From positions 806,001-870,000 of the forward strand of contig CDLV01000014.1 of NCBI GenBank assembly GCA_001244265.2: DNA of 64,000 nt, given 5' to 3'. Made by a program: the position numbers and the translations under genes. Each line of letters begins with the position of its first letter. The stretch's first letter is position 1. The notes under the pieces are model-generated. The model searched no databases. It was not told where the DNA came from and saw nothing but the letters and a program-made list of their open reading frames with translations. This document shows, one piece after another, positions 1 to 58,464 of the stretch. Source of the stretch: Microbotryum violaceum (taxonomy: Eukaryota).

Positions 1-1475
1 AAGTATGACCCACAACCACGCCGGACTTGCTCATCCGCGCGGCAGAAACCGAAAGAGGCGATTGAGCGGTCGAGCGGGCGCCGACACCGTCCAAGAAGGT
101 ACGTCGTTCAGCCTGATAGTCCAGAGAACGCCCTGCTCTTCCCTGATCCTCTAACACCTCCACTTATAAGCATGCCCATAATCTTAGAAAGTTGCTGACG
201 ATAGCGCTGAGAAGCTCTGGCCGGGAAAATCGACGCGGCTCTTATGGCGTGCGTGTGTCGGCATAACGCTGTTTCCGAGATGTCCAACCTTGAGAGGAGC
301 GGCGGTACGTACGTCTGTACCATCTTCACAAGATCATTGCAGTGTTAAATTACTGTCCTTCTCATTGAGGGTGGCTCGACATTTTAGGCTGTACTATGCA
401 TTGGCTCTGATCAAGCACGTAGCAGAACAAGAACAACCCGAAGCCAGAATTGGGGCCATGTAAAACATTGCCTGCAACCTCAAGCATCACCTCCAGAAGG
501 CGCGTATAGGTAGCCAATTCTCTCTTGTGGTCGACTCGACTGAACATACTCGTTTCTCGCCCTGTTTAGAGCGACGAGCAGTGCCTAAACGAGCCCTAGT
601 TAGTGCCTAAATTGCCCCTCGTCTTGAATTTGCCACAAGTGTCTTGGCGCTTTCGCGCATCAATGGCCCTGTCAAGTCGAGCTGGACCCTCAATTTTTCC
701 CCAACAAGTTCGGCTGCACCGATGGCGAAAGCGTCCAGGTATCATTCACTGCAGGTTATATCCGCCGAAAAGTGACTGCCGCCGAAAAGTAAACACCTCT
801 CATCCGAGCAGCCTGCCGTACTCGGCGACTTGCTGTGAGCGTGTGCGGCCCCTAATGCTAACTCGGCTGGGATCTGTAAACGGTTTAGGCCACTGACGCA
901 CGACCTGCGCCATGGGAACTGGGTGCGTGTAACGCCCGAAGATTGTCGTTGGCCACGTGACGTTCAATTATTAGCACAAGCTGCGAATTTCAGTATGAAG
1001 ACACGTAAGTCGCGACCACGGCTAAGTACCTATAAGATCGGCGGAGCTGACTGGAGTCACTGGGCGTTGGAGTCAAAGTCCGACTTCTGGGGTAGGTATC
1101 TCGGTAGCTAGGTAGGTAACGGCAGGTGGAGTCTTGCTATCCATCGTGACTTGCCCTGCCATCCGACCTGATCGACAGCACGCCGGGTTGCGCCCCCCCT
1201 GGGCCTGGGCCTGGTCCGCCCATCATCAAGGACGGCGGGCTTACTAACTTGAAGTTGGAAATCGATCAATTCGGGTCCCTAGGTACGCACGGGGGCCACC
1301 TTTTTTTTTTTTTTTTTATCTAATAGATTTCATTAACAGCATATCTATATTAATGCCTAAAAATCCTCGGAAAAGACGGAGGGAATGCAGTTAAGCACAC
1401 TGGCGAGGCCAGTAGTGTGGGACTCGTTGACCTTGGAACAAAATCAACCATACCCACTAAAACCCCCTTAGGCGG

Positions 1476-4400
1476 TTACAGCGAAACCAGTCGTCCCTTG
1501 GACTCCTGGATGGACGCGCGGAGCTCCTCAAATGCCGTTTCGGCGATCGGCTCCAGAGGATCCGACGAAAATCGACGGCGACGAGAGAGCTTCCAGATCG
1601 CGTGGAAGAAGAGTAGACGCAGCTCGACGGGTCGGCGTTCCGAGCGAGAAACGACCGGGCACACGAACTGAACAAAGTCGGGGTGTGGGATAGGAGTGAG
1701 CGCAGACCAGAGGCGGCGGGCAAACGGGCAACCGACCGCAAGGTGTGCCAGGGTCTCCGGAGCCTCCGACAGGCACATGACACATGCGGTAGATCGATTG
1801 TGGAGAGAACGGCTATTTGGAGAAGCGATTTGGCTACCTGGATGAAGTGAACCTAGGGAGAGGAGGTGGGCCGTGTCTTCGGCGTCCGAATGAACCCTGC
1901 GAATCTTGCGTAGCGCCTTCCACCAGGCATTCCAGCGTTGCTCGGGGAGACAGAAAACCCTCTGATGACCGAGAGGGAGGATAGGAGGGTAGAGGAAGGC
2001 TTGGTGGCGTTTGGACGCGTTCACAAACGAAGACGGAGTCATCACCTCGCCATCGGGTCCTCGGAAAAGCGTCGGGTTCACCGAGAGTCGGATTCCGTGG
2101 CCTGCTGGGAAGTAGAGGACGTGTGTTGCCCACCGCTCCAGATTCGGGCTCTTGGAAAGTTCGGGGGGTTCAGCGTTGTCACCAAATCCCAGGCTTCGAA
2201 AAAGCGGATCCATCGTGGAGGGAGCAGGGCCTTCGTCTTCCTCACTGCGCGTTCCCACTGTGGAGGAGGGTGGCAAAAGTAGGCCCACCAGATCCAGACC
2301 CACGAGCGACGATGTGGGTTGGGGCCTGATTTGGGCAAGGTAAAGGGGGTGCGTTCGTTCGCCGCCTGAAGGCGAGTGCGGATGTCGAAGAGGTGCCGAA
2401 TGAAGCAGCCGTCCGGGTCCCGAAGATGAAAGACCCACTTGGCGTGATCGACCGCGAGGCGCCGAGGTAAGTCAATCAAGCCAAAGCCGCCGTGGTCGAG
2501 AGGGGTGCAGAGGCGCAGCCGAGAGACCTTCGGGGGTTTCTGAGATCCGTCCGAGGCTCGACCGTGGATAGCGATCATGACCGCGTCCTCGATCTCCTTG
2601 ACGACGCTCTTGGAAGCTGGGATGAAACGATTATGGTAGAGAATCTTCGTGTAGCAGTAGATATTGATTATCGAACATTTCGCTGCGTACGGAAGGTCGT
2701 ACATTGGGATGGATCGTATCCGGGCGACGGTCGCGGACTTGACCTCCTCCCAGCCCGCATCCTCGGCGATGTCCACCCCAACCTGCACTCCCAGGTAACG
2801 AAACTGCGAGTCGCTGAGACGCCAGGACCCGAGGTGTGAAGGGATCGGACGGTCCCTGAATGACCCGAGGGGTAGAGGAAAGATTTGGCGTTGCTGAGCT
2901 TGCTGGCACTTGCCCGCTCGTACAGCTCGATCGCCCGATTGAGGTGGTCGAGGTCCGAGGTGTCGTGGAGAGCACAGCAGGCATCGTCGGCAAAGAGAAG
3001 TTCTCGTATGGTTGGGAGTCCCGGGCTCGCGATGCCCTTGACTTGTGACCGCAACTGTACGGCGAAGCCCTCAATTGCGAGAACGAAGAGCGACGGAGCC
3101 AGCGGGTCGCCTTGTCGAACTCCCGAGAGGATATCGAACGCGGCCGAGAGCCATCCGTTGAGGTAGATTGAGGCGGATTGGTTTGTATAGGTCGCTCGGT
3201 ACCATTGGCAGGCTTTCGGGCCAAGGCCAACGGCGCTGAGGACTGCATCGATGTAGGTGTGGGAAAGACGGTCGTAAGCCTTCTCGAAGTCCATCACTGC
3301 GAGCAGACCGGACACCGGCTCTGAACCCGGGAGCCCAGGATCCATGAGACACTGCACCTCGGCGATGTTCGTGCCAATCCAGCGGTTCGGAATGAAACCG
3401 CGCTGGGTCGAGCCGATCAGGGTCTCGAGCAGAGGGGCAAGGCGCTGGTTGTGGGCTTGGGAGATGATGCGTTCATCAGCGTTGATGAGTGATATGGGGC
3501 GTTTGTTCACCAGCCGATCCCTCTCGCCGCGCTTGTGGATGAGGTGGATGTGGGCAGTGTGGCGGGCCGACGTTCGAGAACTGGCGTCGTCGGTGGGGAT
3601 CGAGTTGATGACGTCGCGGAGGATGGGGCCTGTGGCTGTCCACGTTGCGCGGTAAAACTCGACCGGGAGACCGTCGGGTCCAGGCGAGGAGTTCGACTTA
3701 CACGCCTCTTGTGCCTTTGTTATCTCCTCTAGGGGGTACACTCCTTCGAGCTTGTCCGAATCGGCAGGGGATAGGCGAGTCGAGGCGAGACCGTCGATAA
3801 TCTTCTCCAAGGCGTCGTCATCGATAGCGCGATCCTCGTAGACCCCTTCGAAGTACTTGCTAGCGGCTCCAAGCATCGAGTCGGGGTCGGAGTGGACGAC
3901 ATTGTCGACCGAGAGGGAAGGGATGAGGTCGGATGCGCGCACTTTGCGTAGGCGGATGAAGATGGAAGATGGGCCCGCGAGGGAAGGATCAATGCGGGAC
4001 CGCAGCGCCGCGCCGTAGCGCGAGTGATCTGCCTTCGCCTCCTCCGATCCTCCACGTCGGAAGCGGGCAAGTGTGCGAGCCAGAGCCTGAAGCTCGGGCA
4101 GCAAGTGTTGTTTGGTGGACGTCCAAGCTGCTGATGGGTCGTCGGGCGTCTGGAGGAGGGCTTCATTGTAGAGGGCCTGGACAGTGGAAGTGAGGTATTC
4201 GCAGGTCGCGTCGCCCTCGATCACGTGCAAACCCAACTTGAATTTACCCGGACCGATGTCGATTGCGCCCGGCACTTGGAACCGCGCCGCCACCATCGAG
4301 TGCGTCGATTTGAGGACAGGAGCCCAGATTTTGTGGTCGTGGAAGAGGTCGACCCAATCAGGCGAGACATAGATGCGGTCAAGGCGACGGCACGTGCCGG

Positions 4401-5045
4401 GCGCTGAGCGATTCGTCGTGGCTCGTCCTTTGGGATGGTGAAGCCGATAGACATCAAAGAGGTTGTTGGCCGTGGCAAGGTCGCGCATCTCCTGGCCCCC
4501 ATAATTCGTCCCGTTTTGGTTCTCCGAATCGAGGGGTTGGGACTCAACACAATTCCAGTCCCCCCGACTAAGAGCGCAGGCGGCGAGGGCTCGTCGCGCA
4601 CGACTTGTCGGAGGGCTGTGCTGAGATGTGAGAGGAAACGCTTTTTGTCTGGCTTGTCGGAGGAAGGCGCGTATATTGATACAACCCGGATTTTTGAGTC
4701 TCCCACGCGAAAGGTGGCGTCGGTGACTCGGTCGGGGAAAGCGAAAGAGGCACGAAGAGTGTTGGGAGGTGACTCGGGATCAATAGTGATGACCACGGAG
4801 TCGCTCTTCCAGAGTATAGCGGTGTTGTTGAGAGGAGTGAAAAGAGCGGAGAGCTTTAAGTCTTGGCACTCCTGAGTCCACTGGGCAACCCTTTCCGGGG
4901 AAGGTCGGCCCGTTTCGCTCAGGAGAAAGACATCGGCGTTATGGGAGCGGAGATTGGAGAAAAGAGAGGCACGCTTACGATCTTCATTGATTGACTGCAC
5001 GTTGGCAGCAACAAAAGACACGTTTGGGATCTTAATTGTGCTCAT
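1476..5045 (-). CDS. LINE ORF2: APE endonuclease, reverse transcriptase and C-terminal zinc finger (split by three 1-nt frameshifts in this sequence)
   Basis: Endonuclease motifs AANVQS, FLLSET, SIYAP, GGDWNC (after frameshift repair), RLDRIY and THSMV. RT motifs SSPGPDGL, KRPISLIN, QRGF, DFEKAYD, GVRQGDPLAPSLF, LFADD and YLGV, then GGFGL. Zinc finger CVMC...ETLAHLAVGC. Spread over track ORFs 4221-5162, 2668-4488, 2078-2788 and 1476-2438. Confidence 0.93.
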
Positions 5046-6449
5046 CGTCTTGCTCCATAACGTCGTCCACGTCCTCGGGGGTGCTTCTTGGTCTTTGCCT
5101 TCTTCTTCGGCATCTTCGTCGGCGTCGGTGGCATCGGGTCGGGCTTTGATCGCTGAGGGCAACGGCGAGGAGGGCCGGGGGTTCGGCTCGGAGGCTTCGG
5201 GGCAGGCGGAGTGGGCGGGTCTTCACGAGTGGCTGGTGTGGAGAGGGCAGCAATTGACTGGGAACGAGTGATGATCGTCTTTGGCGTTGGTGTGGCCGGA
5301 GCAGGGCTTGGGGGCGAAGGGGTCGTCTCCGAGCTGGGGGACTCGGAGGATTTTTCAACGAGGGGAGGGGCAGTTGACTGGTTGGAGGCGGGCAGGGGGC
5401 GGAGTTGGGAGGGAAATTGAAGGAGAAACCGGGGCGAGGAGTCTCCGACAGGGGTTCAGGCTGAGCCCTGTTAGATGGATCTTGGGGCTGGGCAGCCAGG
5501 TCCTGATCTGGGTTCACTCGACGTTTTTTGGTCTTCAACGAGCGGTCGGGCGCGGGTGGCGCAGGGATCGACTTGGAGGCCGGGGGGCTTTGGTCATGGT
5601 GGAGGCTTGCGCGGCACGTGACTCGGGAGTGCCCTGGGGGCTCGACGCGAAGCGGCGGCCCGGGCAATGCTGGCTGGCGTGCGAGGTGCTTGCGCACGAC
5701 TTGCACGCCGGGGCGACGGGGCAGTCCTTACGGACATGGGCCGCGGAACGGCAGAAAACACAGTGGCGCATGCCACCGGTGATCCTGAGCGGGATACGCT
5801 CGGTCACGCCGTCGCGTTCAATGGAGATGGATGCAGGAGGCAATTTGTTTGGGTCCCCGAGGGCAAGAACAAAGTCATACACCCCAGAGATGTGCCTAGT
5901 CTTGCCAATGTAATGAGTGCGGCGAAGGAGGACCTTGCCGTACTCGGCAATCTGCTCATCAAAGAGGCGGAGGCCCTCTACATCGGAGAAGAAGCCAGAA
6001 AGGGTGCATTGAATTAGACCAGTAGTGGCTGAGAATAGTTTCTCGACTTGGCACAAGGTCTTTCCAACGGTCAGACCATTCGCGACCAGGTCGGCGATGT
6101 CGGCGTCCTTAGGGAATCGGATGCCGTGTTGTCCCTTGATGACGCAGGGCATGGCGCCTGCAAGGGCCGGGTAGTGGTGATCGAGTGCTGAGAGCACTTT
6201 CTCGGAGGTGGTCGCGGGAGGGGTTTTGATGATTACACAGTTGGCGATGTTGTGAATCATCGGGTGGGAGGCAACAGTCGTGGCGGTGGCGGGGGTGGCG
6301 TTGGTCTTCGCATGGGAACGGGCGGAGACGGCCGCGGAGTACGACTTGGTTTGGGCGGTGACGGTGACGCCGGTGGGGTCGGGAGGGCGATTAGGTGCTA
6401 TAGCACCGGGGGTGGCATTGCTGGTGTCGTTGTTGTTGTGGTTGTTCAT
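5032..6449 (-). CDS. LINE ORF1 (gag-like nucleic-acid chaperone) with two CCHC zinc knuckles and a Pro-rich/acidic tail (frameshifted in this sequence)
   Basis: ATG at 6449 (MNNHNNN). CVFCRSAAHVRKDC and CKSCASTSHASQHC knuckles. Continues through homopolymer frameshifts to DDEHN* at 5032, directly upstream of ORF2. Confidence 0.85.
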
Positions 6450-6554
6450 GCGTGTCGCCCTCAGTTTTTCGATTCGCCTTGGGCCGAAACCTTTCAGAAG
6501 AATCAAGTGATTAGCCAAATCAAGTCACCCCGAAGAGGGGGAGAGGGAAAGGAG

Positions 6555-6648
6555 AAAGATTTGGACTAAGAGCGTTGGCGTGCATCAACAACGGCAATTT
6601 TAAGTAAAAGGCGTAAGATTGATTCTGTGGTCGATACACCGCTCAGTT
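6555..6648 (-). ncRNA. U5: U5 spliceosomal snRNA-derived sequence (5' domain through an Sm-like site, no obvious 3' stem-loop) at the LINE 5' end
   Basis: Minus strand reads AACT GAGCG GTGTATCGAC CACAGAAT CAATCTTA CGCCTTTTACT TAAAATTG CCG TT GTTGATGCAC GCCAA CGCTC TTAGTCC AAATCTTT. This gives the 11-nt U5 loop I (6613-6603), a 7/8-bp closing stem, the conserved CCG, a 10-bp stem, a GCCAA bulge, a 5-bp basal stem and Sm-like AAUCUUU. Confidence 0.85.
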
Positions 6649-6661
6649 AAAACTTTTTTTT

Positions 6662-7048
6662 ATTTTTTTATTTGATAGACTTCATTGACAGCATAATTAT
6701 ATTAATACCTAGAAATCTTCGGAAAAGTCGGAGGGAATGCTGTTACGCACACTGGCAGAAGCCAGTAGTGTAGGACTCATTGACCCTGAACCAGGATCAA
6801 CCATACCCACTAAAACCCCCTTTGGTGTCTTACAGAGACACTAGGCGACCCTTGGACTCCTGGATAGAGGCTCGAAGCCCCTCGAACTCCGTTTCGGTGA
6901 TCGGTTCCAAAAGATCCGACGAGAATCGACGACGGCGACAGAGCTTCCAGATCGAGTGAAAGAAGAGGACTCGTAGTTCGACAAGTCGACGTTCCGAGCG
7001 AGACACGACCGGGCATACAAAGTCCACAAAGACTGGGTGGGGGGTAGT
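6662..7048 (-). mobile_element. 5'-truncated older copy of the same LINE family (ORF2 C-terminus, 3' UTR, A-tail)
   Basis: Aligns by eye to ~1309-1695. Encodes FVCPVVSRSERRLVELRVLFFHSIWKL...QESKGRLVSL*, close to the ORF2 end of the full-length copy. Interrupted A-tail at 6654-6669. Confidence 0.93.
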
Positions 7049-8034
7049 TCGTGTTGATGGACTGGGCCACTACTTTCGAGCTCATAGCCTTGACAAGGTC
7101 ACTCGCGCCTGTCCGGTCCTTGTTTCAGGTCTCCCTCAAAGATTCGTTTTAATCAGCAGTTCGGCTGGGCAAGCTTCGAGAACCACCTCGGCCTCCGGGC
7201 TCAAGATGGCCGAACTCGGCAGGCTGCGCGTGGAACGCAAGCCGCCTTCAAACGCCAAACGCTCTTTCGCACGTCGTGAATAGGCGCTCGGTGGTCAACT
7301 AATGAAGCTTCTCGCGTCTGCGAACGAGGAGTCGTCGGCCTGTTCGGCGGACAAACGAATGCTCTCTGTGTTCAGTAGTGTCGACGGCAAATGAAATGAA
7401 GGACCTGGCCGCTTTTCACTCCGCTATTTTTGCCCCGCAGATCGAAACAGCAGTATGTAGTGATTTTCTCTTCCTCTTTTCCTCCGAGGCCCCACTTTTC
7501 CAGCCCCGGCCCTGAATCCCTCGTCGTGACCTCCATTAGCTTTGTCCCTACCCCCTCTTGGTCTAGCTCTGCCATTTACCATCCTGTCCTCGTGAATAGC
7601 TTGCCCGTCCCTTTCTCGACGATACCCACAAAGACCTCGCATCGCCATCCGTGACGATCGCTTCAGGATTTGGAGCTTGTTCGGATTTCGGCCTTTGACA
7701 GGTGAGCTTGCGTCATAGTAAGAGAGGCTGATCTACGCGCGCGCCGAGGGTGCCTGACACGGCTCGCCGGGGCCCCGGCCCCACGCCTCGTCCCTCGCCA
7801 CTCCGCGACGGTCGGTGCTCAACTTTGCAATGAGCAAAAGCTCGACCACGGACAGTCAGAAGACACAAATCATGGATCTGTGCTGACAATCCGCATCTGT
7901 GTCTCTACCCGACCGTGTCGTCATTACCAGACCTCGTCCGCGCCCCCGCATTTCCTTCCCTCCTCTCGACCACTTCGCGCTTCAGCTCATCTCGTGCCCC
8001 AATATCGACGAAACAAGCACCGCCTTTAACAGCC

Positions 8035-18875: not shown

Positions 18876-21800
18876 TTATGCGGGGCGCGAGCCAGCACGG
18901 GAGAGCTGGGCACCGGCCGAGGCGGCTTGGCGCGACGAGAACCTCGACAACTCGTTTGGCGAGATCGAAACCTTCTTGCCACCCAGACCGACCGAAGCCT
19001 GAGCACGGCGCAAGAACGAGGTTCGGTTCGAGTAGAGCGAAGCGGTGCGCGATTGGGTGCGGGTCATGGGTACACCTGTGTCCTGGACGGCGGTGCGGGC
19101 CTTGCGCGACGCCTGGTATTGGCGAATGATGGCGCGCATGCCGAACTTGACAAGATCTGTGGATGGGCGCAGGTCAGACGTTAGCGAGAGCAGCTAGGGT
19201 TCAGCGTGAGCAGCCGGAAGACGTACCCAAGGGGAAGAACTGCGCGAGAGGAGAGGAGGGGCAGAGGAGGAACGAGCATGAGGCGAATCAGCGACCGAGC
19301 GTCGATGTGAGCGAGCGAGAAGGGCCATAGGACGCGAAAGACTCACCCAGACGATGTTCCAGATCCAAACAAAGCCAATGTAGCCTCCTGAGATCGATGA
19401 AACAGCTGTGAATGACCAAGAGCCGTAGGCAGCTATGATTGACGAAACGAGTTGTGCCAAACAAAAGGCACCAAAGAGTGCGAGGGAAGGACGTTCGAGG
19501 AAGAACCATCCGTGAGATCGGGTGATGAAAATGAGGGCCTGCGAGATCTGGGCGACCTGGAGGTAGATGATCATGTGGATCTTGGGGTCGTTGGGGTCCG
19601 AAAGTTGTTCGAGACCGAGCTTGTCGGCGCAGAAAGAAGTATCCATGACGACCAAGTAGCAGGCGATGGTGCCAACGGCGAGGTAAAGACCGTAGGCGAC
19701 GGCGTAAGCAAAGATCTCGGCCAAGTCCCACGAGTCGGGCGTGTTCGAGGGCAACACACGATCAACGGAGAGGGTCATGATCGTACCATCGTTGAGCAAG
19801 GCAATGATAAGAACCATGAAGGGAGGGAAGTCGAAGCGGAAGGCAAAGGCCATGATCGCGAAGCCGACGACGATACGGATCGTGACGGCGCAGGCGTAGA
19901 TCGAGTAGTTGCGCATACGTTGGAAGATGACACGCGATTGACGGATGGCGTGAACGATGGTTGACAGTCCGGGTTCGGTCAAGACGATATCGGCAGCACC
20001 GCGAGCGGCATCGGTGGCGCCTTCGACGGCGATACCAACGTTGGCACGGGACAAGGCGGGGGCATCGTTGGCACCGTCACCGGTCATGGCGCACAAGTGA
20101 CCGAGGGCCTGGAGGCGCTTGACGATCTCGTACTTGTGTTCGGGGAAGACACCGGCAAATCCATCGGCATCCAGGATCATCTCGTCGAGCGAAGCGTGCT
20201 TGCCACCTTCGGGGAAGCCACCGGTTTGCAGGACCTTGGCGGGGTACATGTGTTCACCGAGGCCGAGACGGCGACCTGTCTCCTTGGCGATGGCGAGCTG
20301 ATCACCGGTAACCATCTTGACGCGGACACCGAGGGCTTGGGCATCGTCGATCGTTTGCTTGGTGTCTTCACGAGGGGGGTCAAAGATGGCAAGGAGACCG
20401 ATGAGTTCAAAGCCGTCACCCCTGTCCTCGTGGTTGCCCGAGGGAACGTTCTCGAATGCGACGGCGAGGGCACGGAGACCACGCGCGGCGAATTCCTCGA
20501 CATCCTTCTCGAGCTGGTCCTCGACCTCGTGGCTCTTGTTGCGCGAGCACAATTCGATGATGACACCGGTCATACCCTTGGTGACACGCTTCATCTTGCC
20601 GGTAGACTCTTCGATGTAGGTAATTTCGGTACGCTTGTCAGTGGGGTTGAAGGCCTTGAAGTCGACCAACTTGATACCCTTGCGCGCGAGCGAGATGTCG
20701 CCACCAATGGCACCAGTAACGCAGGTGTCGATGGCGTCCATGTTTTCCGTTCGTGAGGCGTACGCAGCGTGGAGGATGACGGTCTGGGCATCCATCTCGG
20801 AGTAGGTCTTGAGGGTCGTCAAATCGATCGTGAGCTTGTTAGTCGTGAGCGTACCGGTCTTGTCGGAGCACAAGATCGTGACACCGGCGAGTTCTTCGAT
20901 GGCGGTGATACGGGTGACGATGGCTTTGTACTTGGCAAGCTGCTGAGCACCGACGGCGAGCGTGACGGACAAGACGGTGGGCATGGCGATGGGGATACCA
21001 CCGATCAAGAGGACGAGGATGCAATCGAGGCCACGGCGGTACGAGTAGTGGAACGCGGGGTATAAAATGACGATTTCGAGGACAATGAAGAGACCGATCG
21101 AGCACAAACAGAAGAGACCGATCTGGGCGAGAATCTTCTGCAAGTGACCAGTCGAGTCGTCATCGGCACCGACGAGCGAGGCAGCGCGACCGAAAAAGGT
21201 GTTGGCACCGGTAGCGATAACGACACCCTCGGCTTCACCTTGCTTGCAGATGGACGACGAGAAGCACTGGTCCCCGACCTTTTTGCCCTGGGGCAACGAT
21301 TCGCCGGTGAGACCCGCTTGATCGATCGAGACCGTGATGGCATCGTAAAGACGGCAATCGGCGGGGACAATGTCACCGATCTTGAACGCGATCACATCAC
21401 CAGGGACGAGGTCGGCCGAGTCGATTTCGTTCCAGACGCCGGTGCGGCGGCACTTGGCCTTGGGGGCAAGCGATTCCATGAGGGCCTTGACAGCATTACC
21501 AGCAGATCGTTCTTCGTAGTAACCAATACCAGAGTTGATAAAGAGCAGAAGGACGATACCGACGAAATCTTGCCAATCTGGCGGCTTGCCTCCTCCGTTG
21601 GAGAGGGCGATGGCAACCAAGGCCGCGCCTTCCATGACCCACGAGAGGGGGTTCCACATGAAGCTGCGAGAGATGCAGAAGGGGCAAGGGTCAGCGTCTG
21701 ACTGGGCTCGGCGCGGCGACGACAAAGAATGGAGAGGAGCGCGGGAGGATGCGTGCGCTGATTTTCGACGCTACGTGGGCCAATTCCCAGAGCGGAATGT

Positions 21801-46806: not shown

Positions 46807-49800
46807 TCAATGAGAAGATTGCTTGTATTTGTCACTCGCCTCGATCTGGGCCGAATCGGGATCGAACGTGTTCCGAAGGCCCAGTAACGCTTTCGACACC
46901 GCTTCCGAGGCCCCAATCATCGGCTTGAGCACGGCGACGGGAACAGCGCGGACAACGGCTCGAACGGGACCGTCGTCACCGGTTTGCTCATACATCTCCA
47001 TAGGCAGGGCTAGGATCGTCTGCGCGGCCGAACGCAGTTGTCCACCCATGGTGCGGTAGGCCGACTCGATCCCTTCTCGCACGTCGCTGGGCTGCGCAGC
47101 ATACCGACTGATGAGTTCTTGGCGCTCTTCGTCGGTGAGCAGGTGGATCGGATCGTTGTCCTCCGCGGAGGCGGAACCCTTGTCGGATGTTCCCGCAACC
47201 GAAGGAGCGTTGCGGTTGAGACCGTCATAGCTTGCACGCGTCGGCACAGAGGGTCGGTTCGAGCTTCGACCGCCGCCGCCGCCGCCGATGAACGTTTCGG
47301 CCTGCTCCAGGATGACTTGAGTACCAGTCGCAAGTCTAGCGCCAACACTGAGCGCCTCCATCGTCGTCTGAAGGGCGAAGGCAGTGGCGCCCTTTTGTAG
47401 TCCACGAACGACGCGACCGTCTTTGCGGAATTGCTCAATGGGGAGGAGGACAAGATTTGCTACCCCGGAACCGACGTTGACAACAGAGCGAAAAGGACCA
47501 ATGCCGGAGATCACATCAGCGAGCTGGTTGGCCTTGACGTCCTGGGTCCAAATGTCTTGGACGAGGTCCGATAGACGTGTCGAACCGGCAATCCCCGTCA
47601 CGACCAGATGCCGCAAGGTGATCTCGGAAGCATCAAAGTTGAAAAAGTTCATCAACTCGGCCGTCTTGCCACGACGAAGCGCGTGGTAGTCGACGCGTTT
47701 GGCTTTGTAGTCAAGCTTGATCTTGACAGGAAGAACCTCGACTCGCTGGAAGAAAGGCTCTGCCGAGGTGGCGTTCGGCGCCCTCTCGGCAGTACCAGCT
47801 TTTGAGGCCTTGTTGGGCGCGTGGAAAGCGCCGAAAGCCTTGAGAAAGTCAAGAGCATCTTGATCGACGTAGAGTCGAAGAGGAGAGATCTTGATCTGCG
47901 CGTGAGAGATTGTTCAATCTTTCGAGAGCGTAAAAGATTAAGGAGGAAGCAGTGACATACCTTCAGGGCAAGTTCTTCACTAGCTCCAACTGAACGACCG
48001 ACGGGACGCATCTTGTCGAGCTCGACTCGAGCCATCGACGTCCCCGATGCCCGAGGTACTCCTCCATCAACAGGCCTTAATTCGGTAAGGAATTTGCGCC
48101 AAGTCGAAGTTTTGACGTTGTCGAGGATGTCAAACGCGTTGACGTCGATACGGATTCGAGAGGCCCACTTTTCCGTCGCACCAAAAGCATCGAACCGAGC
48201 CGACAACGCCGTCAGATTGATCTCGATCGCATGCGACGTCGATCGGGTCAGTCGCTTGCGAGACTTTCCCACGGCCGTCCTTGCAAGCTGAGAAGTGCGA
48301 GCGATGTTTGGCGTAGCTGCGCCACTGGGCATCGTTTGCCAACTGCTGACTGAAGCCGCGCTTGCTTCTTCGCCCACGTCCGATGACGTGTCATTGAGCT
48401 CCTCGTTGATCGCAGCGAGCAATTCTTTGGGAGGCAGCTCGAATGCGCCAGGCGACAGGCCGAGTTGAACGGATCCGAATACAAGAACCGAGGCTTGCTG
48501 TTCTGCGCTTGCATCGGCAGTTTGACCGCTCGCGAGTAGCTGCCGGATCCGTTCGAGGCGGCGACGGATGGCCTTGCGTTCATCCTGAATGGCTTTGCGG
48601 GTCGTATGCCAATCGTATCCTTCGTGTAGCATTATGGAGATATCGCAATTCAAGACGCGACATCGTGTGATGCTCGGTGGACTGATACGAAACGCGGGGA
48701 ATGAAATTTGAGCAATCGGCTCGATAAAAAGGGTCCGGGCATGTGACGACTTACCATCCGATGCGAGCATCTTCCTCTTCTCGAGGCACAGCCAAGTACT
48801 CATCCAGGATACGAAGGCCTTTTGGATCAAGCATGCGGATTGTCTCGCCATCGATGTCCGAAATGATTTCCCCAGGACGATCAGTAGAGGCCTTTTGTCC
48901 AGGGCTAGGTGGTTGCGGCGTTTGTCGCCCACGCGAGCTGGGAGTTTGTTGGAGCGCATCGGCGAGGTAGGCCAGGTTAGTCGGCACATCATCGGCGAGG
49001 ATTTCGGGGCAGTCGACCAACAATTTGGCGTGCTCGAATGCGCTGGGATCGAGGCTCGCGAGCACGTCTACAGACGACTGGCCCAGGTGCACGCGCTGAG
49101 TTGAAAATTTGGGTGCTGGGACGGGTGACTCAGTCGTTGAGGGTCGGAAGAAGGCGCTTTGAAGAACGTCGTTGATGATGTCACTAACACATGACATTGA
49201 GTCTGCGCAGATTGAAAGTTTCACCCTCGAATCGGCGACCTCGAGCTCAAAGTCGGGCAAGACGAGGCCATTGCCCTGTCGGATTTGGATCGACGAGCGC
49301 TCGAGATGCGCCAACTCGGCGAAACCCCGCGTCTTCCAAAATTTGAAGCCAAGTTCGCGTGACGCGTCCTCGGTTGACAAGGGATCTCCTGCACCTTCGA
49401 CGACAAGAAGTCGCACCTCCTTCGGTTCGACGATGATCACCGTCCTAGGCATGTCGGGCATGAGATTCGTCGCCACTCTTGCCTGACCAATCGAAACGAC
49501 GAGCTGCGACCCGTCCGGCGTCGGTGATGTAACGTGGATCGAGCCATTGTTGACATTCAGTCTGATCCGGGTCAATTCATTCGGCACGACCGTTTCGAAT
49601 GCACCAGCCGGCGCTTTCGCGAAAGTCGACAGCTCGCGCGTCCAGTCGAGCTCAGCGGTGAAGAAGTAGGTGAAGTTGCTCAACGTGAGCTGCACCTTGG
49701 ACTCTTTGAGGCTCGTCGATTTTTCGACTGAGCTGGTAAAGTCAATCCGGAGCACGGGGTCCGTGGCTGCAGCCGTGGGTCGAGGAGCCACAGTACGCGC

Positions 49801-52800
49801 GAAGATCTGTGTGTTCGTCGAGGAATTTGATGGTGCTTCGAACGTCACGTTTCCGAACGTGGCGAACACATGCAAGTCGTTTTGGCTGTTGCGCAGCACA
49901 TGAAGGTCGATATCGACGTCGGCAGCGAGAGCTCGAAGGTGCCTGTGGGCCTGCTTCCCCTCGTGGCCCGGACCTGCCGGTTGGACCTGTTTATCCATCC
50001 AGAGGTCCAGGACGAGGTCCGTAACCTCGACTTTGACGGTCGTCGCGCTCACCCCAAAATCACCACTACTGTCCTCGCTCTCGCTGTCGGCTCGCGCACG
50101 ACCCCTCGAGAAGCTCTTCGCGCCAAAGTATCGACTGCTGATCATCTTGGGATTGCGTTCCGAGCGTATTGAGAAATCTATCGAGCTGTCGTCGACCCGT
50201 GCATCGGCGAGGCGGGAGCTCCATTGGGCCAGGTCATCCGCGAACAACTGAAGACCGTCCAGGGTCATTTTGTCCACCGAGGCACGGAGTAGAGGAAGCG
50301 AGCATTCAACTACGGTCGTTGTGCTCGTATCCGCGGAAGTCGGGGACTGGGGCGACGAGTCTCCTAGACCTGCAAGTTCAACAGATTGCTGTCGAATCTT
50401 GATCAAAGGCACCCGTGGTCGGTTCTCCACAGGGTGGTGGGCGAGATGGGTAAGTGACAGCAAGGCCCGAGCCGTGGACCACGCATCATCATTGCTGGGC
50501 GGAGGCGCAAAAAAGGCCAAGGCACGCGTCACGGAAATCGTTGTCGTACCAATGGGATCATCAGGCGAGCGCGGGAGAAGCGATACGGCGAGGTCGTGAA
50601 AATCGAGCACGACGATGCCGGACCTCAGAGGATCGTCCCAAGCCCGAGCCCGACCCAAGCTACCCTTGGGCGGTGGGCAACGAATCGAAATTCTTAGCAT
50701 AGAAATATTGACGTCTAGGCCCGATGTAGCTCTCTCAGGCGGGGCCGCATCACTGAACGGAGCCGACCTGTTGTGCGGACGATTGAAACCGACGGGCGTC
50801 GAGGGCCGAGGAGTTTGAGTGTCATGCTGCCCACTGCTGTCGGCCGTTCCAATGACCGAGACGAAGGTTTGCAACCGCTCGACGAAGCTCAGATCGAGGA
50901 ACAAGTGGATCGGCTGCAATCGTATGGAATCTGGCGGAGAAAGGGTCGAATCTCAGCAGATGGCACGGTATGATACTCTCGCGGGACTCACTGGAGCCGC
51001 TTTGCACTGTCACTGTCGCAGCGGGTGCTGGCTCCTCCGGCTTCATCGCTTTAATACCCACTCTCAGCTTGAAACGAGTTCTCCATCCTTTCCCTTCCGC
51101 GAGCTTGTTCCTCTTCCAATCGATCAAGTCGAAGATAGGGAACGCGTCCTCGACATTATATTGCCTTTCTAAGTCTGGATCCGAGACGAGGATCGGAAGA
51201 GTGGTGTTCTTGACCTGCCCTTCGCTTGTCGTAGTACAGAGTGATTCGACGAGCGAAAACGAGCGCAGTGGAAAAATGGTATGCGGTGGATCTGTAGAGT
51301 GCCGTTCGACAAAGGCTCCCATCCCTTCAAGACGTAATCGCAGATGATCGCAGGGAAGGTTGAATATGGTTGGATGAGCCCAAAAGGTGTCGAGTTCGGT
51401 TGCTGAGGGCGTCATTGACGAGGGAGAGTGGGCGACAATGAGCTGGAAGAGCTTGACGCCGATCGCGATCGTCAGGTTCGGAGAGGCCGAGCGAGCTTGC
51501 TCCGGTGTAGCTCGCGATACCGTTTGAGTAGAAGGCGGAAGACGTGACGTCACGAGTTCGGCGAGTTGGAGGAAAGATTGAATCTGATATGGAAGTACGC
51601 TGATAGTGATTGGTACAGAAATGGTCGAACGAATCTCCAGCTTGGGCGGAGCTCCTCTGTTGAATCGCGGAAAGAGGTCCTCGGGCTCTGCCGGCGTTTG
51701 TGACTTGGGAGCAGCGGTGGACGTCAACGAAACCACGATGGGCTCAGATCCGAACGACAATATAGTGTCGGTTTCGATGGGCTCTGCCTCACCCTCAAGG
51801 AACGGGTTGCTGTTGCTGTCGTTGTCACGCGACTGGCGGCCTCCTATGCTCGACTGGTTGGACGATCTTTTCTCAAAGGTGGATCCTCTCGCACTGGCAT
51901 AGACGGACTCGCCCATAGGAGCACAACTCTGCGCCGACACGAATGACGTCCGTAAATCCGCGATCGATTGAGACATCATCATATCGTGTTCGGGCGTTAG
52001 ATCTTCGTCTTCTGATTCTTCCGATTCGGTTGACGATGCATCATCGTCGCCAGCTGGCTGAGTCGGTCGTGGTGTACCAGGTCTTCCCAGGTTCACGCCC
52101 GTCTTGAACCTAATGTCAGGCTTAGTTATCGACAGCTGGTGTTGGCTCAAGACGTCTTCGATCAAGCCATCGTTGCCAGGTACTTGATCACGCTCAGTAT
52201 CCTCGTAAACGATCTCGTCGATGCTAAAGACGAGTTGGTGCTCTTCCTCGTCGTCTTCCCATAGCAGCGTGACTTTGAGGTTTCTGACCCTCACCTGCAA
52301 CCTTGCCAGAATGCGATCGATCAAACCGGCCAGCATCGTGACCTCTTGAGCTTGTTCCTCGTCCATGGACGATCGACCGGCGGTGGTCGAGCCTCCACGC
52401 GTACTCCCAAAGGCGCCGGGGAGTTCGAGATCTGGCTCTGAGTGGATCGAGAGGTGCAGTGACTGTCGCAGTGCCTCATCATCCTTCTCGTCGAGTTGAT
52501 GCTTGACAAACTCGGACGCGACAGTGACGGACAAGATGCTCTCTGCCAAAGCTGCCTCGTCTCGCTCATCGTCTTGGTCCTCGTCTCCACGGTGATCGGG
52601 TGGCGATGTGGGGCGGCGATGACACTGAGAGGCTCGGGCTCGAGTTGCGCTGCCGCTGCCAGCATTGAGAGTTTCGTGCGACGCGGACAGCAAGTCTTCT
52701 CGATCGACATCGGATCCGTTGTTCGGGCTCGACCGAAGCGGTTGGACTTTGAGCGTGATGCACAAGTCGTCCACCTGCAACGACAGCGCTCGGCGTGAGG

Positions 52801-54259: not shown

Positions 54260-57200
54260 ATGGCGAGCGCCGTCGTCGAGCGGATGGACATCTCGTCCGA
54301 CTCGGCCTCGGCATTCAGTTCTGGATCGTCAGAATCCGGATCAGATCTCGAGATCATCGACTGTCGACCGGCAACCTCCGCGCTCGAGGTGCTCGCCATC
54401 ACCGACAGCAGCTCCAGCTCGGACCGGGGATCCGACATCGGCAGCGATGACGACCTCACGATCGTAGCTCCTTGTCCAAAACATAGCCCCGTGGCTTTAA
54501 AGACTCTTACCGTGGCCAAAAGATCCGGGCGGGCATCACCACCTCCTGCATCAGATTCCAACACGGCCACCCCGACAGCCGCTCGCGACGCTTCACCCCA
54601 TCCCACATCGACAGCCTCGACAGCCTCGACAGCCTCGACAGCCTCGACAGCCCCAGCTTCGACAGCCACCACCCTCCAAAGAAAGTCACTGCAGAAACAG
54701 GCCGAAGCAAGGCCAGCCGGATATCTTGTCATTTCCTCCGACGAGGACGGCGGCAACGACGACGATGAGGACAGCAGCGACTCGATTGGCAGTGAGCTTG
54801 AAATCACCGTCGTTTCGAGGTCGTCTCCGAAGCGTGCGCCGGCCGTGGTGGTTCCACCCGCACCGCGCCACGAATCCAGTGGCGACGATCTACCTGCACC
54901 TCAGGGAAGTCAAAGCTTGACCTCGTTCACCCCATCGGCGCCCCCGTCCTTGTCTACGTCGATTCCTCGCAAAGGGCTTGTCGAGGTTAGTACGCGACCT
55001 CCCGGGGTGCGAAAACCCTGTCTGAACCTACTCACGCCCGCCCGTCCGCTGATTTAATTGGCAGGCCCAGCCCTCAAACCAAGGGAGCATCGTCGCAAGT
55101 ACGTCCCAGGTCCAAATCGAGCAGCTGTTACCCCTCTCGGACGTACCGCCGCCTGTGCCCCGGCAGCCTTCCGTGGGCCCCAGGCAATATGTGCTCCCCC
55201 ACCCGCCCGTTTCCACGTCCCGCCTGTTTATCCCCAAGTCGAAACCTTCTTCGTCGTCGTGGTCGTGGAAAGCTCGACCAAATCCCACACGTCTGAACAC
55301 TATTCGAGTCAACTTGTCGTCAAGCCTGTTGAAGAGTGGTGACGAAGGATGGGTAAAAGCCATACCTCGACGATTGAACGCTCCCGAAGATCGGCTCTCT
55401 CGCCTTCCACAATCTCCTCCAACACAGTCGAAGACCCTTCCGACCGGTCCAACACGGCACCCAAGTCAATCACCTCCAAAACAAGACACAACTCAACCGT
55501 CCCCGATGAGACCACCTACTCGTGCAGCTTCAGCTCTGCCACAACAAGCCCAAACTCGTCGCTCGAACGATCTCGGTTTGAACTCGAACACGGATTCGAG
55601 CGAGGACGATCTTCCTGCGCCTTTCGGATCACCGTCAAAAAAGCTTCCTGGGAAAGAAGACGTTGCTGCTGCGCTTCCCACACCGGCTGCTACAATCTCG
55701 CCATCTCTCGCCTCGGATTCGTCCTTGACCGTTGACAAGGGCAAAGCGCGAGCGTCGGAATGGACCGATCCAGACTCTGATCAGGAGATCGAGGCCGACG
55801 ATGAGGGAGAATCCCCTGTGTCTTCGATGCATCGAAGAACGCCGGAGCACTACCCTGCCTTCCCCCAGCGAAGCCCCGGTCGTCCGAGCTACTCCAACCT
55901 CGCCAGGGAACCCTTGACGAGCGCAGCTCAGACGGCCAAGACAGCGCATTCCTCAACTCGAGATTTGGATCTGTTCGCTCCCACACCGAAACAAGGCAAG
56001 ATCAACCGAACAAAAAAGTCGCCCAATCCTCTTGAGGTATCCTCGTCCCCACCGATGAGCACTTTGGTCAACCGGAATCCGACCCCTGACTCGACTCCTG
56101 AACGCAAAGCCGAAGCCGAAGGCCCTCGACCCCCTTCGGAGCCGTCTGCTCCGCCCGGATTTCCTGACGGTATCCAGGTGATAGATCACAAATGGGATGA
56201 GATGAATCAAGAGGAACCTGCTGTCGCTACCCAAATGGAATCGACGGTCCCTGATGGCTTCCAAGTTGCTGCTCATCTTCACCCCGATCCTACGTCAGCG
56301 CAGCCGGACCTAACCAGAAGGGCCGAAGCGCAACGATTACAACGAGAGCGAGAGCGGGCACAGCATGCCATCGAGGTAAGAATGACTCAAACCGACACAA
56401 TTTCCGATGTTGAGGTTCCGCTGGACCCCGCCTCGATCGAGGGCCGCTCGGCTCTAAATTTGACGATCGTCAAGAAGCGTCGATTGGGCGGCAAAAAGGA
56501 CGAACTCAAATTGGGGACCCGGGAGCGGCGCAAGTCCAAGAGGGTCATCAAAGCCCCTTTGCAGACGCTACCGAATGGTCTGATGGAGGTCGATATGAAG
56601 GCGGATCACGAAGTATTGGCACAAGTGGAAGATGTGAATCAATTCGTGCGTGAGGTGAATATGGAAGTGGCGCAAGTCAACGAGGAGATAGACTCTTTGC
56701 AGGAGCGGTTTGAGAAGGTCAGTCCAGATGTGTGGGGTATCATAGGCCTGTATGGTAGGTCGCCTTTGACTGAACACGTTCTGGTGACCTCCTGCAGTTC
56801 GTGTTGCTCGAATCCGCGCGACCGCCGAAAGAGCGACAAATTCTCGGTCCCGAGCTCGAAGACGAGAAAAAGTCGGACGTAAGGGCGACCTTGATCCAGC
56901 TTATACTCAACGCCCGAGCTTTTGAGATGCAAACTGGCGAAAAGGCGGACAGGAACCCTCGGTACGACACCAGTAGCCACACGCTCTTGTTCGAATCCTT
57001 GATCGCGGACGTCAACAGCAGCGAACTGAGCGCGCCGTGTCGCATTCGAGTGATCCCTCCCGTTGATGGTGGCAAGCCCCATGCGCCGCCGTTCGAGTTC
57101 GTCTATACGAACCGTGTCATCCTTCCTCAAGGCTCGGCCCCGGAAGCACCTTCTTCATGCGATTGTCAAGGCAACTGCGGCGACCCGGCCAATCTCAAAC

Positions 57201-58464
57201 GATGCGCCTGTCGGCAGCGTCAACGGGAAGCGAGTCGAACAATCGGCACGGAGAACGAACGCTCGGGTCACGACTCGTTTGCTTGGGAGTCGGATGGGAC
57301 GTTGAACCATGAAGTTTTTGGTTGCAGTGATCCGATTTGGGAGTGCAACGCCGGCTGCGGTTGCGATGACACGTGCGTGAATCACGTCGTTGGTAAGAAA
57401 CGATCGGTCGACGTCGACATATTTTGGACAGGTCCTATGAAAGGATGGGGGGTGCGTAACCCACCCTCGCATGACCTCGATCCCCAATCGTCGATGCCAT
57501 TCATGCCTGATGGGGGTTCCGTCTATCGCGGTCGCGTCATCCGTCGCGGAGAATCTCTGGCCATCTACGCGGGCGAACAGATCCCGACTTCGAACACTCC
57601 CGAACGCGTCGAGGTCTACGACAAGCTTTGCCGGAACTACATCTACGACTTGGACCACTTCCATATCCCCGAAGAAGCTGGCAAGGACCACTTGTACCGC
57701 ACCCAGGGGCGAAAGCCCTTGTCGGGGAATGCAACGAAGAAGGCCCAAAAATACGGGCGGGACCTCGCTGCCTTCGCTGTGCAATACAGGGAACGAGTCT
57801 GGAACAAGGAGCTCGGGTATTGCGTCGATGCGTTCTTGCGTGGGAACTGGACCCGGTTCTGTAACCACTCGTGCTCGGAGTTCAATGCCATCTCGAGGCC
57901 GGTCTACGTCGACGAGGGTCGCGTCGAACGGCCCTTGCTCGTTCTCTTCGCCAGTCGGGACATCCAACCGGGGGAAGAGATCAGGATCTCGTAAGTCGCA
58001 AAGTTGTTGCTCGGTCAACGCTGCACGTTCTGACGAATTGGACTTCCCGTTTACAGCTACCATTCGGAATCGTCCCCCGAATTCAAACAAGCACCTAACC
58101 AAACCCGAGCCCAATACAAGACGTTATTGAGACAATATCGCGCAAAGGCGAATGCAAGGCGAAAGCAAGCTAGACCAGAGTTTCGATGCTATTGTAAGCC
58201 GAGCAGATTGTGGAGGTCCGTGTACGAGGATGTGCCGATACTGACGCGATGACTGCTGCTTTCTTACCGCTCTTCCCGCAGGCGGCGAATTCTGGTGTCG
58301 GGGAGTTGTACGTTGCGCCGCGGTGATCGTATTGGGCGTATAAGATCAAGGCAGCTGACTGTTCTCTTTCGTTTTTCTTTGACCCGCAGATGTTTAATGG
58401 TGGTGACGATGATTCAGACTCAAGCGAGCTAGATGAGACTGAGCAAGAGGAGGCTCCGAATTAG
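54260..58464 (+). CDS. clr4: SUV39/Clr4/DIM-5-like histone H3K9 methyltransferase (pre-SET, SET, post-SET)
   Basis: Pre-SET CDCQGNC...CAC...ECNAGCGCDDTCVN. SET GWGV, YAGE, RFCNHSC, LFASRDI and EEIRISY. Post-SET CYC/GEFWCRG assembled from small exons. Orthology to Clr4 is inferred. Confidence 0.8.
54608..54669 (+). repeat. In-frame 9-bp tandem repeat (TCGACAGCC) encoding STA repeats
   Basis: Five consecutive tcgacagcc copies plus a sixth nearby, in the N-terminal part of the SET gene. Confidence 0.85.

Follow-up and report, generated by a model that had tools for sequence, protein, structure and literature searches.

In the stretch of Microbotryum violaceum DNA analysed here (64 kb, referred to below as the window), a complete copy of the U5 spliceosomal snRNA stands directly 5' of a LINE, LINE-A, which is probably full-length and coding-competent, and just behind the 3' end of a second LINE, LINE-B. 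We consider it probable that a U5 RNA copy was joined to the 5' end of the full-length LINE-A in one retrotransposition event. The parts, their order and their borders, read 5' to 3' on the minus strand, are as follows:

down to about 7071, minus strand: unique DNA
7064..7070, minus strand: candidate target-site duplication (TSD), upstream copy of the shared 7-mer GTGGCCC
7048..7063, minus strand: 16-nt filler at the 5' junction, neither TSD nor LINE; LINE similarity begins at 7047
6654..7047, minus strand: LINE-B, a 5'-truncated LINE 3' end of a second subfamily, 394 nt, 83% identical to 1302-1693; it contains the ORF2 end, the 3' UTR and an A-rich tail finishing in A8 (6661-6654)
6648..6653, minus strand: GTTTTA, six letters between the LINE-B A-tail and the U5 5' end (direct reading)
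6517..6647, minus strand: complete U5 spliceosomal snRNA retro-copy, 131 nt, placed by the Rfam RF00020 match and the borders of contigs from one public run (X15); stem I with loop I, internal loop, Sm-like stretch, 3' stem-loop and short tail
6450..6516, minus strand: 67-nt leader between U5 and LINE-A ORF1, taken as the LINE-A 5' UTR
5032..6449, minus strand: LINE-A ORF1, about 473 aa after read-through, with the ATG at 6449; interrupted at 5581 and 5394
1476..5134, minus strand: LINE-A ORF2, split over several frames; reading through the breaks puts its first ATG at about 5134
1301..1317, minus strand: A17 tail of LINE-A (direct reading), followed by GGTGGCCCCC
1293..1299, minus strand: candidate TSD, downstream copy of the shared 7-mer GTGGCCC

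The U5 copy and its borders

The whole 64-kb window was scanned with cmscan against 4227 Rfam families, and the U5 model (RF00020) gave the sole gathering-level match, at 6645-6526 on the minus strand, with 55.3 bits against a gathering score of 40 (E 2.1e-6). The alignment is untruncated and spans positions 1-117 of the 117 of the model, so that the match is to the full model. When the 741 bases from 6380 to 7120 were rescanned permissively, the E-value for U5 was 2.4e-8, and just the R2 element appeared among the other RNA families, at chance level (E 0.78). All the consensus positions of the 11-nt loop I, CGCCUUUUACU, are identical in the RF00020 alignment (11/11), and stem Ic, which closes this invariant loop, is found in the predicted fold. 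The single-sequence minimum-free-energy structure has -27.6 kcal/mol (z -2.04), 7 of 200 shuffles being equally good. The original prediction, made from the letters alone, had named this segment U5 and had listed loop I and several stems; the model score bears out the name, and the loop and stems are present both in the RF00020 alignment and in the single-sequence fold. The Sm-like stretch does not follow the consensus in that alignment, reading AAUCUUUCU instead of AAUUUUUG; the model continues through the 3' stem-loop to 6526, with posterior probabilities of only 0.3-0.6 in the left arm of this stem-loop. An exact 24-nt U5 pattern gave 0 matches in metagenome contigs.

Public runs were screened for the region 6000-7600, which gave 24 runs; 20 contain part of it and 15 at least half of the sampled words, from 8 studies. 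No confirmed RNA run was among those listed, the RNA labels being guesses. The contigs of four of the 24 runs (X1, X6, X15 and X16) were aligned to 900-7600 at 80% likeness, and the contig evidence rests on the 32 of 1551 contig pieces and the 21 of 190 loose ends listed. A second U5 copy was found in the X15 contigs, and it stays similar to the window through the Sm-like site and the 3' stem-loop, to 6517. Among the loose ends listed, X15 contig sequence agrees with the window from 6517 towards higher positions, preceded by 32 unlike letters, and also up to 6647, followed by 33 unlike letters; the simplest reading of these matches would be one short contig, possibly two, with U5 in another context. 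Compared with the Rfam match, the likeness ends no more than 2 nt from the start and 9 nt past the end. Since this independent copy matches to 6517 and to 6647, U5 is placed at 6647-6517, with a length of 131 nt. An end of U5 at about 6555, followed by a pyrimidine-rich leader, had been proposed; this part of the original prediction has to be corrected, since the model aligns the Sm-like stretch and the 3' stem-loop to 6526 and the X15 copy extends to 6517.

The X15 copy, which we infer to be the native gene, differs from the window on both sides of the U5 segment, beyond 6647 (across the GTTTTA side) as well as before 6517, and the window U5 is therefore an RNA-derived copy, without promoter or gene flank. 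The upstream promoter region and gene flank of a native gene are missing, the LINE A-tail ending 6 nt upstream of U5. These two observations agree with the view, held from the start, that this is not a native U5 locus. As a copy that lacks the U5 promoter, the window U5 is, judged from its sequence context, a passenger and not a functional U5 gene. It has the orientation of LINE-A and lies directly 5' of it; no A-tail separates the two, and the A17 tail stands at the far end. No 3' part of U5 was found after the A17 tail, where GGTGGCCCCC follows, either in the Rfam scan of the 64-kb window or by direct reading. The LINE-B tail forms an A/T-rich tract 6-30 nt ahead of U5.

The two LINEs and their flanks

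LINE-A ORF1 (P0001) has two CX2CX4HX4C (CCHC) zinc knuckles, read from its translation, and no Pfam family was found in it. It has 17 database relatives at E <=0.001, all the named ones being from Microbotryum species, and the best shows 75% identity across 88% of the query, which places the window in an anther-smut-like basidiomycete. Searches for ORF1 gave 47 pattern matches in metagenome contigs and 2 matches in viral contigs, with 0 confirmed in either. For ORF2, the Pfam search of the broken minus-strand ORFs detected a reverse transcriptase (RVT_1, E 8.8e-19), together with weak matches, below the cut-off, to an AP-endonuclease (Exo_endo_phos, E 0.0015) and to a C-terminal zinc-binding domain (zf-RVT, E 1.3e-4). 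The RT-bearing ORF matches human L1 ORF2p with E 8.2e-32, against E 6.7e-12 or weaker for R2 proteins. These matches point to an L1-like APE-type LINE, an assignment that stops above the clade (L1, Tx1, Tad1 or other). A count in M. lychnidis-dioicae gave 392 LINE copies and no SINEs (PMC4469406).

The public contigs have an extra letter relative to the window in nine alignment rows, which represent seven distinct breaks (2162, 2868, 4559, 5076/5079, 5198/5199, 5394 and 5581), with one more G, C or A each; all nine border a run of 4-6 G or C. Where contigs have 0 other letters, those gaps are all that separates them from the window, for example in X1 records 5 and 6. When an N was inserted at the seven breaks, eight fragments of 163-703 codons became two long frames, measured stop to stop: one of 498 codons, in which ORF1 ends at 5032, and one of 1347 codons, in which ORF2 ends at 1476. 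The LINE-A frameshifts are probably assembly errors, i.e. homopolymer undercalls of long reads. Because the read-through restores two long ORFs, the donor LINE appears to be an intact element. The LINE-A family is young, with contigs showing 0 other letters over 343-910 nt in X1, X6 and X16.

Other apparent frameshifts in the assembly may share the homopolymer-undercall cause. Elsewhere in the window, an ATG2-like autophagy gene (47652-52366, minus strand) is present in three ORFs that match successive parts of Pfam ATG2_CAD, a split that may stem from introns or from homopolymer errors. The rest of the window is DNA with ordinary genes, among them those for a P-type ATPase and a Pre-SET/SET methyltransferase (19194-21659, 56927-57994). 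No tRNA genes were found in the 64-kb window.

The comparison of the first 7 kb with the window returned one repeat pair only, 6654-7047 against 1302-1693, with 83% identity. The sequence directly upstream of U5 had been described as the A-tail of another LINE, and this similarity to the LINE-A 3' end confirms it. The 65 differences between the two 3' ends comprise 38 transitions and 27 transversions. RIP was considered as the origin of the 17% divergence and was rejected because of these 27 transversions; the identity level and the transversion share therefore indicate that the two LINE 3' ends represent different subfamilies, LINE-A and LINE-B, and not RIP-mutated copies. X16 record 16 shows 1 other letter over the 383 nt of 6663-7045, beyond which it extends through LINE body to a flank unlike that of the window; in each of the four runs, the summed contig depth peaks over the LINE-B part. 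Taken from the contigs, LINE-B is young and abundant, and, since it would be young, the LINE-A and LINE-B RNAs could have coexisted. At position 6687 the window has a G, and all the covering contigs of the four runs (29 of 29; 9, 7, 12 and 1) have an A. The G could be a private change or an error of the window copy; otherwise, none of the contigs would derive from the window locus.

At the outer borders, other LINE-B copies in the public contigs listed continue beyond 7045 into the LINE body, whereas the window does not. GTGGCCC is the only 7-mer common to the 91 nt that precede the composite and the 76 nt past the A17 tail; its frequency in shuffles is 0.008 in a test chosen post hoc, it has only 7 nt, and 16 unexplained letters stand between it and the LINE-B fragment. 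An alternative duplication, A8G at 6661-6653 and 1308-1300, would apply if U5-LINE-A had entered the LINE-B tail, and is trivial inside an A-tail. The GTTTTA letters would be either extra 5'-junction letters or the G that ends an A8G duplication plus TTTTA. Two short repeats were set aside as candidates for microhomology or for remnants of an old U5 head, both being near chance: the 8-nt repeat ACTTGATT (6525-6518 in the U5 tail, 6508-6501 in the leader), by a rough pair count, and the 7-mer AACTGAG, common to the U5 start and the leader (6466-6460), by a rough count in about 200 nt.

At the U5 end of LINE-A, X6 record 28 follows the window over 5652-6466 with 0 other letters in 815 nt, then has 51 non-fitting letters. 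X15 record 14 follows it over 5335-6455 with 2 other letters in 1121 nt, plus two homopolymer gaps, then has 41 unlike letters, and the 30 of them displayed show no resemblance to U5. X16 record 21 covers 5966-6492 with 0 other letters and stops there. The LINE-A copies that leave the window at 6455 and 6466 may be slightly 5'-truncated beside their flanks, or may have other heads. The parent LINE-A family thus occurs without a U5 head (X6 record 28, X15 record 14), as would be the case for the LINE part of a chimera. Because other copies part at 6455, at 6466 and perhaps at 6492, the 67-nt leader could be something other than a LINE 5' UTR.

On the other side, flank contigs of X1 (record 8) and X6 (record 29) enter LINE-B with 0 other letters, reaching 7018 and 7040. 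No contig bridging 6493-6662 was found among the pieces listed (32/1551) and the loose ends listed (21/190), and the U5 junctions are therefore without independent confirmation. No empty site was seen either, since the contig rows listed include no joint row linking both flanks. X16 gives no cover of 6493-6662 in the rows listed or in the depths, and X15 has zero depth at 7172-7395; neither speaks for or against the junctions. The first 500 nt of the LINE (5966-6499) have, in X1 and X16, a summed depth several times that of the rest of ORF1. This excess is the reverse of the usual 5'-truncation gradient, and a short derivative, expression or a contig-summing artefact are possible causes. A copy-number reading of the summed depths (the U5 bin of X1, the near-flank of X6 and X15) was dropped, because sums are not copy numbers.

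Origin of the composite

Three origins had been put forward for the U5-headed LINE: a source copy inserted in a U5 gene at the Sm site, U5 as the fixed 5' UTR of the whole family, and a one-off template switch or ligation. The U5-gene source, as proposed, is contradicted, since the whole U5 lies upstream of the LINE, none of it follows the A-tail, and the X15 likeness runs past the Sm-like site. The fixed 5' UTR is contradicted by the near-identical LINE-A copies of X6 and X15, which diverge before U5 (at 6466 and 6455); U5 is therefore not a fixed part of the family. The one-off origin is the best fit of the three and the one that we favour, as a probable but by no means certain reading.

From the layout we infer a template switch and the following order of events. 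The LINE endonuclease would nick an A/T-rich target and the reverse transcriptase would prime on the LINE-A poly(A). The whole LINE-A RNA would then be copied and, at its 5' end, the enzyme would switch to the 3' end of the U5 snRNA and copy it through to its capped 5' end. Less likely, the U5 and LINE RNAs could have been ligated prior to reverse transcription. The completion of the event can be envisaged in two ways. In a sequential version, the cDNA would be joined inside the A-tail of a pre-existing LINE-B, with A8G as the duplication and TTTTA as extra letters, and GTGGCCC would then be LINE-B's own duplication. In a tripartite version, a second jump onto the tail of a LINE-B RNA would stop after about 400 nt, and the composite would be flanked by GTGGCCC. 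Both versions fit the flanks, and we do not rank them.

A chimera formed in one event is supported by the arrangement itself, a cellular RNA copy 5' of a LINE in the same orientation, with ends that are RNA ends. The complete U5, bordered as the RNA is and without promoter or downstream flank, counts in the same direction. So do the recent activity of the LINE-A family, of which the copies departing at 6455 and 6466 represent further loci, the apparently intact donor, the youth of LINE-B, and the precedents from human and fungal LINEs (PMC4476161, PMC11838501, PMC2104539). Against it count the absence of a clean long TSD, the six letters GTTTTA, which have no assigned source, the 67-nt leader, which may not be LINE 5' UTR, the junctions left unbridged by the contigs listed, and the off-consensus Sm-like stretch. 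The completeness of both partners also counts against it, since in the human cases the U5 parts are 3'-truncated and the L1 parts usually 5'-truncated (PMC4476161, PMC11838501).

The junction could also belong to a U5-headed LINE sublineage, arisen from a chimera or from a master copy immediately downstream of a U5 gene and transcribed from upstream of U5, which would give U5-first progeny and represent the autonomous counterpart of snRNA-headed SINEs. The LINE-A behind U5 looks intact and could still move, and the A/T-rich LINE-B tail upstream of U5 might serve as a promoter. Recurrent snRNA heads on retroposons are known, as in SINEU (PMC4494074). The summed depth of the U5 bin in X1 exceeds what the LINE-B contigs at 6687 would explain, such depths not being copy numbers. 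However, LINE-A contigs identical or nearly identical to the window depart at 6466 (X6) and 6455 (X15) without U5 at the junction. A retro-copy of an snRNA brings no promoter, snRNA promoters being upstream of the transcribed region (PMC4494074), and internal LINE promoters would be expected to start downstream of U5. We regard such a sublineage as unlikely.

Independent neighbouring insertions appear still less probable. LINE endonucleases prefer A/T-rich DNA, and repeated hits at one spot happen, so that a U5 processed pseudogene could have been inserted beside the LINE-B tail and a later LINE-A exactly at its 3' end; in a variant, a native U5 gene would have been flanked by LINE hits. Two or three events exactly at the U5 RNA ends, 6647 and 6517, would be needed, and neither an A-tail nor a duplication surrounds U5 alone. 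The native-gene variant is further opposed by the LINE-B tail, which at 6 nt from the U5 start leaves no promoter, and by the different sides of the other U5 copy (X15). Sequential and chimeric insertions can nevertheless look alike (PMC11838501).

The least probable of the explanations, and in our view very improbable, is a misjoin of a U5 locus and LINE copies by the long-read assembly. The systematic homopolymer undercalls of the window are those of an assembly that was un- or lightly polished, the G at 6687 disagrees with the A of 29 of 29 contigs of four runs, and the gap at 6493-6662 is not bridged by any contig among those listed. A misjoin is, however, unlikely to fall exactly at both U5 RNA ends, in the orientation of the LINE and beside an A-tail. 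Moreover, the X1 and X6 flank contigs that enter LINE-B with 0 other letters show that side of the composite to be real, and 15 of the 24 runs listed contain at least half of the sampled words of 6000-7600.

Significance and comparison with known chimeras

With this locus, LINE-driven RNA chimerism would be recorded from a basidiomycete LINE, in addition to the U6/L1 and U5/L1 chimeras of mammals and to MINE of an ascomycete. Copying apparently went all the way to the 5' end of the LINE's RNA and then, beginning at the 3' end of an Sm-class snRNA, through the whole of that RNA, which bears on the choice of acceptor templates by LINE reverse transcriptases and on the gain of new 5' heads, as in the snRNA-headed SINEs. 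With its intact-looking LINE, the locus offers a natural test of the propagation of an acquired head. There is an outside chance that the chimera is not a dead end, and that the A/T-rich LINE tail may drive transcription of the intact LINE with its U5 head, so that a U5-headed autonomous sublineage would be founded in anther-smut fungi; if so, U5 structure, Sm binding or cap hypermethylation might affect the fate of the element RNA. In practical terms, the segment is a pseudogene of U5 and, if not recognised as such, would be annotated as a gene.

Mammalian snRNA/L1 chimeras (U6/L1, U5/L1 and U3/L1) resemble the window in that the snRNA lies 5' of the LINE in the same orientation and is directly fused to it, with poly(A) at the LINE end; switching of templates by the LINE reverse transcriptase, or RNA ligation, is given as their origin (PMC4476161, PMC11838501, PMC6789731). 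Seven human U5 copies are tied to retrotransposed sequence, and three of them are explained as template switches from L1 or other retrotransposed RNA to U5, their U5 parts being 3'-truncated at 83, 78 and 98 of 116 (PMC4476161). In contrast to human U5/L1, the window U5 is complete down to its 3' stem-loop and tail, and its LINE partner seems to be intact over its full length. In the U6/L1 chimeras U6 is full-length and L1 mostly truncated, although some near-full-length L1s that carry extra sequence at the 5' end have been reported as well (PMC11838501). Unlike in the mammalian cases, the host of the window element is a basidiomycete fungus and its ORF1 has CCHC knuckles.

Among fungi, the MINE/MGL chimeras of Magnaporthe grisea share with the window a LINE that has a full-length copy of a cellular non-coding RNA at its 5' side (PMC2104539). 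In that study, 33 chimeras of WEIRD RNA or Mg-SINE with the MGL LINE are reported, one of them tripartite with a 14-bp duplication; double template jumps lead to three-part elements, and some copies are transcribed (PMC2104539). The partner is the 1.1-kb WEIRD RNA or Mg-SINE, whereas in the window it is an snRNA, and the MGL parts are truncated, spanning 230-5461 of about 6000 nt (PMC2104539). The MGL duplications are clear, with 10-20 bp, whereas that of the window is not (PMC2104539). The GCC*A/U motif of the MGL switch sites is inapplicable at a 5' terminus such as that of the window.

A LINE joined to snRNA sequence is also seen in Keno and Utopia, which target U2, and in a Tx1 family that targets U5 (PMC4640811; PMC4494074, fig. 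3 legend). These elements sit inside native snRNA genes, with the remainder of the gene after the 3' end of the element (PMC4640811), whereas in the window a complete, uninterrupted U5 precedes the LINE without any gene context, which is not the arrangement of a targeted insertion. The U1/U2-headed SINEs (SINEU) and the 5'-transduced L1 and SVA subfamilies likewise carry a cellular RNA at the 5' end that a template switch probably added (PMC4494074). They are multi-copy, with one shared head junction, and non-autonomous, whereas the window represents one known locus of an autonomous element (PMC4494074). SINEU shows that snRNA heads can turn into heritable parts of retroposons (PMC4494074).

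A search of a limited literature collection gave no relevant report, by title or abstract, of a U5/LINE chimera in fungi or in Microbotryum. The suggestion of novelty, that a U5-headed or U5-targeting fungal L1-type family was not known to be described, was nonetheless too strong, given the human U5/L1 chimeras (PMC4476161), the fungal chimeras of LINE and cellular RNA (PMC2104539) and U5 as a Tx1 target (PMC4494074). Taken together, the U5-LINE of the window is most likely another case of the known snRNA/LINE chimera type seen in mammals, with related chimeras in the rice blast fungus. Although supplementary chimera lists elsewhere might include other full-length LINE partners, it is unusual in the completeness of both partners and in its host group.
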